A stretch of DNA of 64,000 nucleotides from Actinomycetota bacterium (GTDB lineage: Bacteria; Actinomycetota; Actinomycetes; Actinomycetales; Microbacteriaceae), in contig JBEEOO010000001.1 in assembly GCA_041191585.1 (NCBI GenBank), forward strand, positions 63,097 to 127,096, in the 5' to 3' direction. Below are positions 13,404-57,299 of the stretch, piece after piece; the first letter of the stretch is position 1; the number at the start of each line of letters is the position of its first letter. A model generated the notes under the pieces. That model ran no database searches, was not told where the DNA came from, and worked only from the letters and a program-made list of their open reading frames with translations. Both the position numbers and the translations under genes were made by a program.

Positions 13404-13826
13404 CTATGCGTCGACCAAATCCTTTTCTTCGTCTAGTTCTTCAATGTCTTCTTCGTTGAACTCTCTGGTCATCACGGTTCGCGTGAAAGATGAATTGCCC
13501 CAGGTCAGGTCGTGGCCCATTGAATCGGCGTCAATTTCAACCGATGTCCCTGAACGCTCACCGTTATCCCAGTCGCGAACGCGAATCTTTCCGGTTACCA
13601 AAATTCGCTCGCCTTTGTTGATTGATGTTGAGGCGTTTATGGCCAGCTGACGAAACGAGGTGACTGTGAACCAATTGGTTTCGCCGTCAACCCACTTATT
13701 TTGTGCTCGATCGAACTTTCGAGCCGATGAAGCGAGTCGAAATGATGTGATCGGCAACCCATCTTGGGTGACCAAATGACGCGGAGTTGTTGCCACTAAA
13801 CCAGTGGCAGTAATTTGCTCTGACAA
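13404..13826 (-). CDS. ssbB: Single-stranded DNA-binding protein, short paralogue (SsbB-type)
   Basis: OB-fold motifs (SFRLASS, DGETNWFTV, EIDADSMGHDL); 140 aa with no terminal PF motif; located upstream of ettA. Confidence 0.88.
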   Translation of the reverse strand: MSEQITATGLVATTPRHLVTQDGLPITSFRLASSARKFDRAQNKWVDGETNWFTVTSFRQLAINASTSINKGERILVTGKIRVRDWDNGERSGTSVEIDADSMGHDLTWGNSSFTRTVMTREFNEEDIEELDEEKDLVDA

Positions 13827-13874: not shown

Positions 13875-13927
13875 AGGCTTTCAAATGCCCATAGATGTCT
13901 TCACTACTGGTCAGAATCTGTGCATAA
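13875..13927 (-). promoter_or_regulatory. Box-37nt-(-10) promoter of ssbB
   Basis: TTATGCACAG (13927-13918), 37-nt spacer beginning ATT, AAGCCT (13880-13875). Same geometry as the yraN and M23 promoters. Confidence 0.65.
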
Positions 13928-52488: not shown

Positions 52489-52541
52489 TTATGCACAGAT
52501 TCAAGAAAAAGATGAAAAGTTTTTGGCCGCAAAATGAAGCT
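52489..52541 (+). promoter_or_regulatory. Box-37nt-(-10) leaderless promoter of the M23 gene
   Basis: TTATGCACAG (52489-52498), 37-nt spacer beginning ATT, GAAGCT (52536-52541), 6 nt, ATG at 52548. Confidence 0.7.
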
Positions 52542-52547
52542 AGCTGC

Positions 52548-53102
52548 ATGAAAAAACTGTGGATTCGGGCCATCGCATTAGGCGGCGCTCTATCGTGCCT
52601 GTTGGGTCTCGGCCTTTCGGCGAGCGCCGCGATAACAACCCAAACATCGATAGAGCCTCAAACGATTTGGCATGTGCCGCTGTTGCCTGACACAAAAGGG
52701 CAGGTTCACCTGCTGAACCCCTATCGTCAACCAAACAGCGACTATTCGGCTGGCCACCGCGGGGTTGATTATCGAGCGCCGGTTGGCACGATGGTCTATG
52801 CCGCCAGCACAGGGGTGGTGGCATTCTCTGGCTTGGTGGTCAGTCGAAGATTGATCACGATTCGGCATGATGCCAACCTGGTGACCGAATATGAACCGGT
52901 TTGCAGTGTTCTCTCGGTTGGCGAACCCGTTAAAGCTGAGCAGTTACTTGGTGAGGTTTGCAGTGAATCACCCAACTACAGCTGGCACTGCGTCGAACCC
53001 TGCCTGCACTTTTCACTTAGATCCGCTGGGGCCTACCTGTCTCCGCTGGCACTAATCGGGGGCCTAGCGCCAAGTCGCCTGCTGCCGATGGGTCACCCTT
53101 AG
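52548..53102 (+). CDS. Secreted M23/LytM-family protein with degenerate active site
   Basis: Signal peptide and HRGVD; YEPV and CLHF stand in place of YxHL and HLH. Confidence 0.85.
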   Translation: MKKLWIRAIALGGALSCLLGLGLSASAAITTQTSIEPQTIWHVPLLPDTKGQVHLLNPYRQPNSDYSAGHRGVDYRAPVGTMVYAASTGVVAFSGLVVSRRLITIRHDANLVTEYEPVCSVLSVGEPVKAEQLLGEVCSESPNYSWHCVEPCLHFSLRSAGAYLSPLALIGGLAPSRLLPMGHP

Positions 53103-53122: not shown

Positions 53123-54034
53123 CTATGCCCTTGGGTGCGCGTTCTGATAACCCGCCTTCAGGCGCTCAATTGAAACGTGGGTATAAATCTGAGTGGTGCC
53201 TAGGCTGGCATGCCCTAATAGTTCTTGAACAGCGCGAAGATCTGCACCTCCATCCAAGAGGTGGGTGGCGGCACTGTGCCTGAAAGCGTGAGGGCCGGCT
53301 TTGCCGGTTGGTGTTGCTTCGAGAATCGCAGATACCAGCGCATAGATCTGCCTAACCCCGAGCCTTGACCCCTTGCCGGTGACCAAAAGAGCTGACCCGC
53401 TTTTGTCGTTGGCCATTTCTCGGCGGCCATTAGACATCCAAAGATCCAGGGCGTCATGGCAAGGTTGGCCAAACGGAACCATGCGTTGTTTGTTGCCCTT
53501 GCCTGTAACTCGAATAATGCGCCGAGAATAATCGATGTCCTCGAGATTCAGAGCTGCAATCTCGCTGACACGCGCTCCGGTTGCATAGAGCAGCTCAACC
53601 ACTAGAAGGTCTCTTATGGCTGATGGACTATCTGGCTGAGCTTTGGCGGTCAGGGTTTCAAAAATTTGACTTAGCGATTCGCGCGAAACCACCTTGGGCA
53701 ACGCTTTGGCCAATTTTGGTGAGCGAAGACGCAGACCCGGGTCAACATCGCATAATCCCTGCTGATAACACCAAGCCGTAAAGGCTCGAATAGCGGCGCC
53801 TTTGCGCGCGATAGTGGATTTAGAGAGACCAGACTCGCTCAGCTTCCATAGCCAATCCCTGAGATGCTCCAATTTGAGTTGGTTTGCGTTGCTTATGGAT
53901 GCAGATGACAGTGCCTGGTTTAGGTCTCTTAGGTCAGAAGAGTATGACTTGATGGTGTTAGCCGAATAACCCTTGCCGGCCTCAAGGTGCGTGACAAACG
54001 ACGCTAATGCGCTGTTCAAGTCGTTGGTGGTCAC
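53123..54034 (-). CDS. xerC: Tyrosine recombinase XerC
   Basis: LYATGARVSE, GKGNKQR, HAFRHSAATH, LLGH, TTQIYTH. Confidence 0.92.
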   Translation of the reverse strand: MTTNDLNSALASFVTHLEAGKGYSANTIKSYSSDLRDLNQALSSASISNANQLKLEHLRDWLWKLSESGLSKSTIARKGAAIRAFTAWCYQQGLCDVDPGLRLRSPKLAKALPKVVSRESLSQIFETLTAKAQPDSPSAIRDLLVVELLYATGARVSEIAALNLEDIDYSRRIIRVTGKGNKQRMVPFGQPCHDALDLWMSNGRREMANDKSGSALLVTGKGSRLGVRQIYALVSAILEATPTGKAGPHAFRHSAATHLLDGGADLRAVQELLGHASLGTTQIYTHVSIERLKAGYQNAHPRA

Positions 54035-54037
54035 AAC

Positions 54038-55270
54038 TCAAACTTTAGTTCGAGACACTGCTCGCCACCGTGAACGCTGATAGCTGACTAATCCGAAAAG
54101 CTGCAGAGCTGAAAGGGCAAAGTCTGTCTCGCTTGAGGTCAGCCCAGCCGACAGCGCGATCTCGGGTGCGGTCAACTCTTCAAAGCCAATGGCATCGAGT
54201 GCGCGCGTCTCTAAAGCCCCAAGCGTGAGAGCCTGATTGCCGTGTCCTAACTCTTTCAAGCCTGAAATCTCTAAAAAATCATTTGAACTCTGCACGAGTT
54301 CTGCGACCCGTTCGGCAATCATCATGTTGCAGCCCTGTGATGCAGGCGAGGATATCGGCCCCGGCACAGCAAAAACCCTTCGGTTGAGCGTCGCCGCCCT
54401 ATTGGCGGTGTTTCTGGCTCCGGATTTGAACCCAGCCTCGACCACAAGGGTCGTTTGAGACATAGCCGCAATCAACCTATTTCGCTGCAAAAAGCGCCAT
54501 TTACTTGGGTGCACTCTGGCGGGAACCTCGGCAACTACTGCCCCCTCAGCAATGATTCGACTTAGCAATTGATGATTAGCCCTCGGATAAAGCGAATCAA
54601 GCCCGCCGGCCATCACAGCGATAGTCTTGCCGCCCATTGCAAGAGCGGTGCGATGGGCAATGGCATCGATGCCGTATGCCCCACCCGACACTACGGTTGC
54701 ACCTGCCTCGACAATTGCAGCGGTTAGGTCCTGAGTAATCTTCTCGCCATAGCTGGTGCTTGCCCTAGCACCTACAACCGAAACTGAATGCTCAGCCGAG
54801 GCAATTGCATCCAGCGAACCTCGATACCAAAGCATTCTCGGTCGGTGAAAACCAAGATCTTGCATGCCCGAAGGCCAACGGTGTTCGTGATCGAAGATGA
54901 TTCTTGTGTTGACTCTCGAAAGTATTTCGAGGCTTTCGAGCAATGTCGCGAAGCTCAATCTGGGCAGCCAGCGCTCGAGCCCATCAGCGATTAGCTTTTC
55001 AATTTCACCGATATGCAACTCATCAAAGGCATTGCCTTGCTCTTGCACCTGGAGTGCTAGGAGAGAAACTGAATCGCGATTTATCAGAGAGTTCAAGGCG
55101 GGTTCGGCCCCAAGTGAATCAATAAGTTTTCCGGCAGTTGAATCACCTGGCTCGCATAAAAGATTCCATGCAACTTGGGCCAGCATTTCGCCATTAGGTG
55201 GCAAGTCAGTCAGATTTTCTAGCAGCCGGTAGGCGGCTTGCTCTTCTCTTGTTTTTGTGTTGAGCATCAA
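54038..55270 (-). CDS. dprA: DNA-processing protein A
   Basis: VVGAR, VSGGAYGID, FLQRNRLIAA, VVEAG. Confidence 0.94.
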   Translation of the reverse strand: MMLNTKTREEQAAYRLLENLTDLPPNGEMLAQVAWNLLCEPGDSTAGKLIDSLGAEPALNSLINRDSVSLLALQVQEQGNAFDELHIGEIEKLIADGLERWLPRLSFATLLESLEILSRVNTRIIFDHEHRWPSGMQDLGFHRPRMLWYRGSLDAIASAEHSVSVVGARASTSYGEKITQDLTAAIVEAGATVVSGGAYGIDAIAHRTALAMGGKTIAVMAGGLDSLYPRANHQLLSRIIAEGAVVAEVPARVHPSKWRFLQRNRLIAAMSQTTLVVEAGFKSGARNTANRAATLNRRVFAVPGPISSPASQGCNMMIAERVAELVQSSNDFLEISGLKELGHGNQALTLGALETRALDAIGFEELTAPEIALSAGLTSSETDFALSALQLFGLVSYQRSRWRAVSRTKV

Positions 55271-56844
55271 AAAACCGGCTCCATCGGATTGTCGGATCCC
55301 CTGAAAAACAGGGCCTTAGTCACGTCATCGGCAGTTGGGCTTGAATTGCCGGCGAGATCGGCGATTGTCCAGGCAAGACGCAGGCAGCGGTCATAGGCGC
55401 GCATGCTGATCTGCCCGCGATCAAGAGCTCGGTTCAGGTTTAGAACAGAAGCCCTGGCTGGCATCAGATGCCTTCGCAGATATGGGCCCGAAATTCGAGA
55501 ATTGAGCACCCATGGGGTTGCGGCTAAGCGTTCGGCACTGACCGACCTGGCTAGTTCAACTTTGGCTTTAATGGCAGCCGACGAGACACCGGCACCTTCG
55601 CTTCGGATTATCGCCATTTCAGCTGCGCTGGTCGGCTGAAGGCTCAATCGCATGTCGAGTCGATCAAGCAGCGGACCAGAGAGCTTTGACGAGTATCTGA
55701 CGCGCTGAATCGGGCTGCAGATGCAGGATTTGTTTTGACTAAAGAGTCGCCCGCATGGGCAAGGATTCGCCGCCATGATCAGCTGAAATTTGGCGGGAAA
55801 CCTAACGGTAGCTGCCGAGCGACTTATGGAAACCTCGCCGGATTCGAGCGGTTGCCTAAGAGACTCGAGCGCGGCTAGTCGAAACTCAGGAGCTTCGTCT
55901 AGGAATAGAACGCCGTTGTTCGCCAATGAAATAAGGCCTGGCGATGGTGATCCGGCGCCTCCGCCGACCAACGCAGCAACAGTGCAGGTGTGGTGTGGTG
56001 CTTGAAACGGCGGTCTGGCAATTAGTTCTGGAGCACCGAGCGAGGCCCCCGTTTTGGTTTTGCTGATTGAGAAAAGTGCAGTTGTCTCTAATGCTGAGTC
56101 GAGCTGCAGGTCGGGCAAAATCGACGGCAGCCGCTCGGCGAGCATTGTCTTGCCGGCCCCCGGTGGACCGACCATAAAAACGTGATGACCACCTGCGGCT
56201 GCAATTGTCATAGCTGTGATTGCCGTCTCTTGACCGGCGATGTCGGCGAAGTCTTTGGGTTCAGTTGCGTCTTGTCGACTCGAAACCACTTCAACCGATG
56301 GGGCAATCGCCAGGTTTGGTCGCACGGCCGATTTGGCACCGTGCATTTTGGCAACCTCAGCAAAGTGATCAACAGCGATTATTTCTAACCCTGAAACCAG
56401 CTCGGCTTCAGATAGATTCGCAGTCGGCACAATGGCACTAGAAAAGCCAGCAGCCCGAGCCGCGAGCAAAGCAGGTAACACCCCGGCAACTGAACGAATG
56501 CTGCCGTCAAGCCCGAGCTCACCAATGTGAACATGCTTGGCGACCAAACCTGCCTGAATGTCGCCGGCGGCAGCCAAAACCGCCACCGCTATTGCCAGGT
56601 CAAAAGTTGATCCGTGTTTTGGCAGCGAGGTTGGCGACAGATTCACCGTAACTCGCTGGCCTGGCATTTTCAGCCCCGAGTTTGTTATTGCCGAGCGCAC
56701 GCGGTCGCGAGATTCAAGCAACGAAGAATCGGGCAACCCGACCAAAACAAAGCTTGGCAAATTGCTAGATATCTCGGCTTCGATCTCGATGACTGTTCCC
56801 GAAAGACCACTCAAACCCATCGAAAAGCTTTTAGCCAGTGACAC
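55267..56844 (-). CDS. comM: ComM/YifB AAA+ helicase
   Basis: VGLPD, VNLSP, GPPGAGKT, FLDEAPEF, NPCPCG; GTG start at 56844. Confidence 0.93.
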   Translation of the reverse strand: MSLAKSFSMGLSGLSGTVIEIEAEISSNLPSFVLVGLPDSSLLESRDRVRSAITNSGLKMPGQRVTVNLSPTSLPKHGSTFDLAIAVAVLAAAGDIQAGLVAKHVHIGELGLDGSIRSVAGVLPALLAARAAGFSSAIVPTANLSEAELVSGLEIIAVDHFAEVAKMHGAKSAVRPNLAIAPSVEVVSSRQDATEPKDFADIAGQETAITAMTIAAAGGHHVFMVGPPGAGKTMLAERLPSILPDLQLDSALETTALFSISKTKTGASLGAPELIARPPFQAPHHTCTVAALVGGGAGSPSPGLISLANNGVLFLDEAPEFRLAALESLRQPLESGEVSISRSAATVRFPAKFQLIMAANPCPCGRLFSQNKSCICSPIQRVRYSSKLSGPLLDRLDMRLSLQPTSAAEMAIIRSEGAGVSSAAIKAKVELARSVSAERLAATPWVLNSRISGPYLRRHLMPARASVLNLNRALDRGQISMRAYDRCLRLAWTIADLAGNSSPTADDVTKALFFRGSDNPMEPVF

Positions 56845-57197
56845 TAGAAAACCTGCTTGAGGTGCTCGATGTTGACCCGACCGCCCGAAACCAAAACCGA
56901 AACAGCGTCGAGTCGAACCGAAACTGCCGATATTTCTTTGGCGCGGCACCACTGGGCCACTAACTTTCGCATTCGGGCGAGTTTTTGCGGCGTAATCGCC
57001 TCAAACGGATGGCCAAATCCGCTGCCATTACGAGTCTTGACCTCGACAAATACAAGTCGGTCGTGGTCGCGTGCAACCAGGTCTATTTCTCCGGAATTGC
57101 AGTGCCAGTTGCGATCAATTATTTGATAGCCCAGCTTGGCCAGATATTGCGCTGCCTGCTCTTCGCCGTAGCGACCGAGAATGTGGTTTGCCTTCAT
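56844..57197 (-). CDS. yraN: YraN-family PD-(D/E)xK nuclease
   Basis: LGRYGE, RNW, GEIDLVA, VFVEVKTR. Confidence 0.93.
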   Translation of the reverse strand: MKANHILGRYGEEQAAQYLAKLGYQIIDRNWHCNSGEIDLVARDHDRLVFVEVKTRNGSGFGHPFEAITPQKLARMRKLVAQWCRAKEISAVSVRLDAVSVLVSGGRVNIEHLKQVF

Positions 57198-57203
57198 GAG
57201 GCA

Positions 57204-57256
57204 ATAATCAAATAGCCACGCGGATCAGAAAAGGGGTTTGCGAAATCTGTGCAAAA
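57204..57256 (-). promoter_or_regulatory. Box-37nt-(-10) leaderless promoter of yraN-comM-dprA-xerC
   Basis: TTTTGCACAG (57256-57247), 37-nt spacer beginning ATT, GATTAT (57209-57204), 6 nt, ATG at 57197. Confidence 0.7.
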
Positions 57257-57299
57257 AGTGGCTGTTTTTATAGAAACAGCGAGGGTCAGAAATGACCAG

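Follow-up and report, generated by a model that had tools for sequence, protein, structure and literature searches.

The window analysed here is a stretch of 64,000 nt (contig C1, positions 63097-127096) from an assembly of 1.13 Mb in 57 contigs, with 53% GC and 80% completeness. This genome (G000) belongs to a genus with genomes of 0.8-1.6 Mb. Among 12 named genomes compared, its ComM is closest to that of Microbacterium/Parafrigoribacterium (51% identity, vs 40-49% to the others). The genome probably comes from a Microbacteriaceae lineage with small genomes. Genomes G041, G057 and G087 were excluded as a basis for any claim.

A sequence-only reading of the window had reported a 13-mer in three intergenic regions, and we recovered it at all three places. 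The 13-mer TTWTGCACAGATT has exactly three copies in the window, at 13915-13927 (minus strand), 52489-52501 (plus strand) and 57244-57256 (minus strand), and no match in 100 dinucleotide shuffles of the window. The 10-mer alone has three matches, compared with a shuffle mean of 0.43, and three were reached in one of the 100 shuffles. The features around these copies are as follows.

57247-57256, minus strand: DnaA-type box TTTTGCACAG of yraN, forward, 49 nt 5' of the yraN ATG
57204-57209, minus strand: predicted -10 hexamer GATTAT of a predicted leaderless yraN promoter (from sequence), 37 nt from the box, with the ATG 6 nt further on
56844-57197, minus strand: yraN, UPF0102 nuclease family (PF02021, 1e-28), 117 aa, with an identical protein in the collection
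55267-56844, minus strand: comM, YifB AAA+ ATPase (TIGR00368, above cut-off); its GTG overlaps the yraN stop
54038-55267, minus strand: dprA (PF02481, 2e-67); its ATG overlaps the comM stop
53123-54034, minus strand: XerC-like tyrosine recombinase gene (TIGR02224, 312 bits, below the cut-off of 335)
52489-52498, plus strand: DnaA-type box TTATGCACAG of the M23 gene, forward, 49 nt 5' of the M23 ATG
52536-52541, plus strand: predicted -10 hexamer GAAGCT of the M23 promoter (from sequence)
52548-53102, plus strand: M23 peptidase gene (PF01551, 6e-15)
13918-13927, minus strand: DnaA-type box TTATGCACAG of ssbB, kept in orthologues of the genus
13875-13880, minus strand: predicted -10 hexamer AAGCCT of ssbB (leadered); orthologues have NANNNT at exactly 37 nt
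13404-13826, minus strand: ssbB (PF00436), the second of two SSB genes in the genome

Because of the two stop/start overlaps (yraN-comM and comM-dprA) and a gap of only 3 nt between dprA and xerC, these four genes are likely to form one operon, of which the XerC-like gene is the predicted last member, placed there by operon position alone. The M23 peptidase is likely to be a wall hydrolase for the uptake apparatus. Profile matches bore out the gene identities proposed earlier (SSB, Peptidase_M23, UPF0102/YraN, YifB/ComM, DprA and XerC-like). The proposed spacing of 37 nt between box and hexamer also holds at all three sites, as does the ATG 6 nt past the hexamer for M23 (52548) and yraN (57197). 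The TAAAAAC...CACTT stretch that had been described upstream of both yraN and M23 is not kept upstream of yraN orthologues, as judged by eye.

Distribution of the box in the genome and its relatives

The pattern TTDTSMACAG has 42 copies in the genome, six of which are forward and exactly 49 nt before a start codon. They precede yraN, M23, comEA (followed by comEC), comF, tadA2 (followed by a T2SSF gene, a Flp-like DUF4244 gene and tadE) and a gene for a one-domain FtsK/EccC-like ATPase. Homologues of this FtsK-like gene were not seen within 1.5 kb of tad genes, and its orthology to Mlut_07490 is unsupported. In order to avoid circularity, we scored boxes with a matrix derived only from 152 boxes of the dnaA-dnaN (oriC) regions of the genus. 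These boxes were cut using a DnaA-like core, so part of the likeness to oriC boxes is built in. At a score of at least 12, the matrix found 95 boxes in the genome. Six were forward at 49 nt, whereas the other distances averaged 0.30 (Poisson p = 7e-7; 2.6e-4 once the two sites of the sequence-only reading that had set the distance are removed). Another six were reversed at 38 nt, vs a mean of 0.23 (p = 1.6e-7, for a distance chosen post hoc among 106). In the pattern scan, boxes reversed 38 nt before the start precede tadA1, the A24 prepilin peptidase gene, a gene for a PKD-domain protein and the first gene of the cpaB-cpaE group; with one mismatch each, they also precede cpaB and a gene of no assigned family. 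The expected concentration of matches at comEA, comF and tad/flp loci was found. The sense direction described for the three copies does not extend to all sites: the genome-wide scan revealed reversed copies, 11 bp closer, that the sequence-only reading had missed.

When the score was lowered to at least 9, 13 sites were found at these two exact distances. T is present at position -7 from the start codon in all 13, A at -11 in nine and a full TANNNT in three, a base pattern that is predicted to mark leaderless promoters with mostly weak -10 elements. The earlier statement that the -10 hexamer lacks its first T is correct for yraN, M23, ssbB and their orthologues and incorrect for the 3 of 13 sites with the full hexamer, including comEA. 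Families of competence genes head 8 of the 13 sites, so that the same element stands before pilus, uptake and processing genes; the other five have no known competence role. We also noted two genes of no family with a box 50 nt before the start (G000:C47:1102-1755, L007, and C2:90133-90720, L018), the first of which encodes a protein with weak winged-helix matches (E ~0.01).

Orthologous loci of the genus were scored with the oriC matrix and compared with background windows. The yraN box was found in 12 of 14 orthologues (background 9/353), and the comEA box in 15 of 16 (background 2/357; 16 of 21 matching genomes were examined), with the best match 48-51 nt from the start in 11 loci. A reversed box precedes tadA1 in 25 of 27 loci (background 20/768), and none of the yraN, comEA and tadA1 boxes had the opposite orientation. 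For ssbB, 20 of 21 orthologues carry the box (background 23/424). Fifteen of its 18 forward boxes have NANNNT at exactly 37 nt, never with T as the first base, and in the three orthologues with a reversed box the hexamer lies at 26 nt. The M23 box is above the cut-off in only 6 of 16 orthologues (background 18/215), and in 10 of the 16 an in-frame start is preceded, at exactly 49 nt, by a box that is often TTATCCACCG. Loci cut by contig ends were left out before these counts (tadA1, 2 of 29; M23, 4 of 20). Since closely related genomes are not independent, the counts show conservation and are not to be read as p-values. They agree with the prediction that box and spacing would be conserved in orthologues; the box is neither randomly spaced nor unconserved.

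Blind pattern scans of five other genomes of the genus gave 39 forward matches (6 in the control) and 39 reverse matches (17 in the control). Among the 60 matches examined, those at gene starts included comEA (3), yraN (2), tadA2 (2), cpaB (2), prepilin peptidase (2) and the PKD gene (2), as well as an FtsK-like gene and dprA; the remainder were mostly out of frame or intragenic. With the query used, YraN was not found in 10 of 24 genomes of the genus, including G003, G005, G007, G009 and G010, and three of the ten exceed 90% completeness. G005 has the box 49 nt before dprA (L108), which suggests from the sequence that yraN-comM was lost while the promoter was kept. In three other relatives (L081, L093 and L105) we saw a box 49 nt before small genes that look antitoxin-like from their sequence; vapB15 is listed among the M. 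tuberculosis DnaA IDAP windows (PMC7738170). Four comEA loci (L058, L067, L072 and L075) have a second box-like 10-mer ~76 nt before comEA, inside the last leuS codons. It lies 27 nt from the main box, which is the tandem-box spacing of high-GC genera, and may only reflect the encoded leuS residues.

Beyond the genus, 10 of the 15 other families sampled in the order have the yraN box. It is also present in 8 of 12 named Actinomycetes, and in other classes in only 4 of 27 genomes, against a background of 1%; the other-class set leaves out two loci of unpublished genomes and the locus of G000 itself. Boxes lie 49-52 nt before comEA in Nocardia, Phytohabitans, Actinophytocola, Nocardioides, Parafrigoribacterium and Arthrobacter. 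Among 13 comEA loci of the Arthrobacter-like family f9, seven have the box at 49-52 nt, five at 72-79 nt and one at both 61 and 79 nt. The cpaB and prepilin peptidase boxes, reversed at 38 nt in the genus, are forward at 49/50 nt in Arthrobacter sp. G100 and G032. For Bifidobacterium leontopitheci, we found no yraN box and no A24 peptidase, and two reversed boxes before comEA at non-standard distances. The search pattern TCCACA-N37-42-TANNNT-N5-7-RTG gave 14 matches vs 6 in the control across five high-GC genomes, with none in two of them; it was rejected as too strict, yet it recovered comEA twice, cpaB and recA. Taken together, the shared box very probably marks a competence regulon in the class Actinomycetes.

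Several other promoters drew attention during these comparisons. In Arthrobacter sp. G100, three related genes of 501 aa (L416, L419 and L421), presumably DUF222/HNH nucleases, have a box 47-49 nt before the start, and two of them have a LexA-like GTTCGA site beside it. The yraN genes of family f26, from another class (L266, L273, L274 and L281), are without a DnaA box and have, by eye, a TGTC(G/A)-type element ~10 nt before TANNNT that we take to be PafBC-like. In G000, a DnaA-type box stands 36-39 nt ahead of the hexamer of TGTC(A/G)G-N10-(T/C)ANNN(T/A) at recA, an RNase_H_2-domain gene and dnaB (G000:C4:70178, L004; G000:C54:2173; G000:C3:71605), a composite also present at Streptomyces recA (G102, L411). 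This second element presumably resembles a PafBC/RecA-independent promoter.

Promoter geometry and the reader of the box

Spacings between box and hexamer fall into clusters of 25-27, 35-37 and 47-50 nt. The main classes are a forward box 37 nt or a reversed box 26 nt from a -10-like hexamer, with ~48 nt in Micrococcaceae. Judged from sequence, these steps of ~11 bp, or one helical turn, would be the mark of an activator confined to one face of the DNA. The box lies upstream of the predicted core promoter at a conserved helical phase (with predicted start sites), and each competence promoter has either a single box or two in tandem, spaced 17-28 nt, with a fixed distance to the -10 element. 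Orientation flips with an 11-bp shift between lineages at ssbB (3 of 21), cpaB and prepilin peptidase, and the two are not strictly coupled across the order. A dyad model, in which the two geometries are halves of an inverted repeat centred at -49, was rejected because no residual half-site is present: a search for an inverted partner at every spacer from -2 to 13 came up empty in 30 promoters with a forward box and 26 with a reversed one.

Several observations make DnaA the likeliest reader of the box, in our judgement with good confidence: the box matches oriC boxes including the flanks, the genome has one DnaA domain, and the HTH_17 rival discussed below was not found in the genus. The oriC-only matrix recovers the promoter boxes, which have the same 9-mer consensus, TT(A/G/T)TNCACA, as the genome's own oriC. 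Tolerated variants and flanks are also common to the oriC boxes (A at position 6 in 27%, G at position 10 in 53%, T at position 12 in 68%). The ATT tail noted in the sequence-only reading persists as a preference for NTT and fails as a specific mark, since oriC boxes share NTT. One DnaA_C domain per genome was found in 35 of 35 genomes with a match, which argues against a DnaA paralogue as the reader. The published actinomycete consensus is TT(G/C)TCCACA (PMC4285127), and DnaA activates promoters and contacts RNA polymerase in other bacteria (PMC8203912). DnaA domain I forms a dimer specific to the class Actinomycetes (PMC13270200); its range equals that of the box, which may be a coincidence. 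The earlier suggestion of DnaA as reader is strengthened by the oriC matrix and by the failure to find the HTH_17 regulator in this genus. DnaA probably reads the competence boxes as a transcriptional activator.

Published binding data give a weak signal. In M. tuberculosis, a window 92 nt upstream of Rv2415c, which is ComEA (PMC2587704), was enriched 3.6-5.7x in IDAP-seq with 300 nM wild-type DnaA (PMC7738170, table S8); the comparison covers the enrichment of the window alone. The window belongs to the weak tail (~41st of ~51 loci by our own count), alongside many further intergenic regions that are perhaps non-specific, and rows for Rv289x, Rv324x, Rv365x, Rv366x and recA are absent from table S8. 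In exponential M. smegmatis, DnaA ChIP gave five named sites, none of which is a competence promoter, and nine unnamed weak peaks (PMC7738170). Such screens may miss single boxes under non-inducing growth or in species that, like those screened, are not known to be competent. Given these possible misses, the weak IDAP and ChIP signal lowers the probability of DnaA without excluding it. The same scarcity of competence promoters in the ChIP and IDAP data (PMC7738170) would be expected if the regulon is real and is read by a dedicated activator with DnaA-like specificity, or by DnaA solely when complexed with such an activator. Conditional induction in M. luteus (PMC6667448) also favors such an activator, as does G at position 10, which is near-constant in competence boxes and only 53% at oriC. 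We consider it unlikely because each genome has a single DnaA_C domain, because the box variants and flanks track those of oriC, and because no conserved candidate emerged.

The candidate named in the literature is Mlut_14660, an HTH_17 (excisionase-family) protein to which almost all comEA-reporter up-mutants map and to which the 2021 M. luteus EMS paper points as regulator (PMC8467076). Its gene adjoins cpaB in Microbacterium, Parafrigoribacterium and Arthrobacter and was matched in 56 of 61 genomes of family f9. The HTH_17 and cpaB genes are divergent, and in 26 of 29 loci the region separating them has one box, which can serve both, so that the HTH_17 promoter itself carries the box (4 of 30 loci not beside cpaB were left out by eye). 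The start codons of the pair in Microbacterium oxydans are separated by 97 nt (48+10+39). The 5'RACE starts of the two M. luteus units are given, in ambiguous wording, as "97 bp apart" (PMC8467076); this fits 49+10+38 and is only suggestive, because the same paper calls the units overlapping. It is nevertheless highly improbable that this protein reads the box: it was not found in five of five genomes of the genus that keep the box (G000, G005, G013, G018 and G131, of which two reach 99% completeness; the search used a Microbacteriaceae orthologue as query and had no positive control), it is absent from the syntenic place in G000, and it was modelled as a repressor (PMC8467076). By eye, short TTTGA direct repeats near its promoter are the more likely site. 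In four Micrococcaceae loci (L511, L512, L513 and L516) we also saw TTTG(A/G) direct repeats at intervals of ~10 nt in the stretch from the box to the cpaB -10 element, a possible HTH_17 site. That DnaA binds and represses, or that the boxes titrate DnaA with no transcriptional role, is very unlikely. DnaA does repress many promoters in other bacteria (PMC8203912), and in two loci a forward box lies only 26 nt from the -10 element, but the main box positions precede the -35 region, the 11-bp steps preserve the phase and the -10 element is conserved in weak form; under titration a fixed distance to start codons would be needless. As for MtrA or an alternative sigma factor, which we regard as extremely improbable readers, comF stands directly behind a histidine-kinase and lipoprotein gene pair that we take to be mtrB-lpqB. 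The MtrA site GTCACAGCG has CACAG in common with the box (PMC4285127), yet its T before CACAG is found in only 1 of the 13 G000 boxes, and in none of them is CACAG followed by GCG. The use of both orientations at spacings of 26-48 nt differs from a promoter of single orientation with a 16-19-nt spacing, and a sigma -35 element is excluded because the box works in both orientations, judging by its positions.

With DnaA as the reader, its domain IV would bind the lone box from one face of the helix, and DnaA would recruit the housekeeping RNA polymerase to weak, mostly leaderless promoters. Single boxes would fill only once free DnaA exceeds the uptake by oriC and by the dnaA and dnaB box clusters, and such an excess would tie DNA uptake to the replication state. 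Where present, the Mlut_14660-type protein, whose promoter shares the cpaB box, would add repression on top. DnaA is essential and always present, so a second input would be needed for induction. In M. luteus, competence peaks during exponential growth on minimal medium and drops when the medium is rich or (p)ppGpp is high (PMC12849477 and PMC6667448), a growth dependence with which the mechanism is compatible; in an auxotroph, tadA1, tadA2 and comEA fall together 4-fold (PMC6667448). On balance, we lean slightly towards the broader view in which DnaA serves as master activator for natural competence in the whole class Actinomycetes, with a single box, in either orientation one turn apart, triggering the Tad-pilus, uptake and recombination programme at initiator excess.

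Comparison with known systems

M. luteus is the only worked-out actinobacterial model, and its competence regulon and upstream regulators were called unknown in 2026 (PMC12849477). It is described as having no homologues of ComK, ComX and CodY (PMC4322843, PMC12849477 and PMC6667448), and its transformation needs comEC, both tad clusters and Mlut_14650 (PMC4322843 and PMC8467076). The loci known there are comEA/EC, tad-1, tad-2, Mlut_14650/40, prepilin peptidase and Mlut_14660, and the same families carry the box in G000 and Micrococcaceae. The M. luteus papers report no motif or activator; our boxes were read in G000 and Micrococcaceae relatives rather than in M. luteus itself. "DnaA" has no occurrence in the 2021 (PMC8467076) and 2026 (PMC12849477) M. 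luteus papers, and a literature search that reached few subscription papers found no description of the motif or of a link between DnaA and competence in Actinomycetes. For the M. luteus question our results supply a cis-element together with a list of genes, and they predict start sites and name a candidate activator; each of these can be tested in already existing reporter strains.

If the DnaA reading is true, a competence switch would for the first time be under the direct command of the replication initiator, coupling DNA uptake straight to the control of replication. A latent capacity for induced transformation would then be implied for streptomycetes, Microbacteriaceae and streamlined freshwater lineages. 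The regulon suggests that regulated DNA uptake is kept even in streamlined genomes of 1.1-1.6 Mb, and it adds candidate competence genes: the M23 peptidase, the one-domain FtsK/EccC-like ATPase, the PKD-domain protein, WXG100 and genes of no family. It may also offer a route to induced transformation in hard-to-engineer, non-pathogenic actinomycetes.

Single or few high-affinity boxes upstream of the promoter are likewise found at E. coli nrdAB, lambda pR and the Caulobacter DnaA regulon including hdaA, where activation through RNA polymerase contact is described (PMC8203912). The word "competence" has no occurrence in that review of DnaA promoters (PMC8203912). Those promoters differ from the present case, in which one box geometry spans a whole uptake pathway across a class. 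The oriC, dnaA-promoter and dnaB-upstream regions of actinomycetes have the same 9-mer and flanks, and occur on contig C3 of G000, but they are box clusters, whereas the competence promoters have one box or a tandem pair.

Among competence systems, the closest in logic is that of Haemophilus and Vibrio, where CRP-S sites act with Sxy/TfoX and a global regulator is thus used at special sites. ComK in B. subtilis and sigma-X in streptococci similarly use one cis-element for pilus, uptake and ssDNA-processing genes (PMC8467076). The genes linked by ComK, sigma-X or CRP-S are also those linked here (comEA/EC, comF, dprA, comM and ssbB), while the motif and its reader differ.
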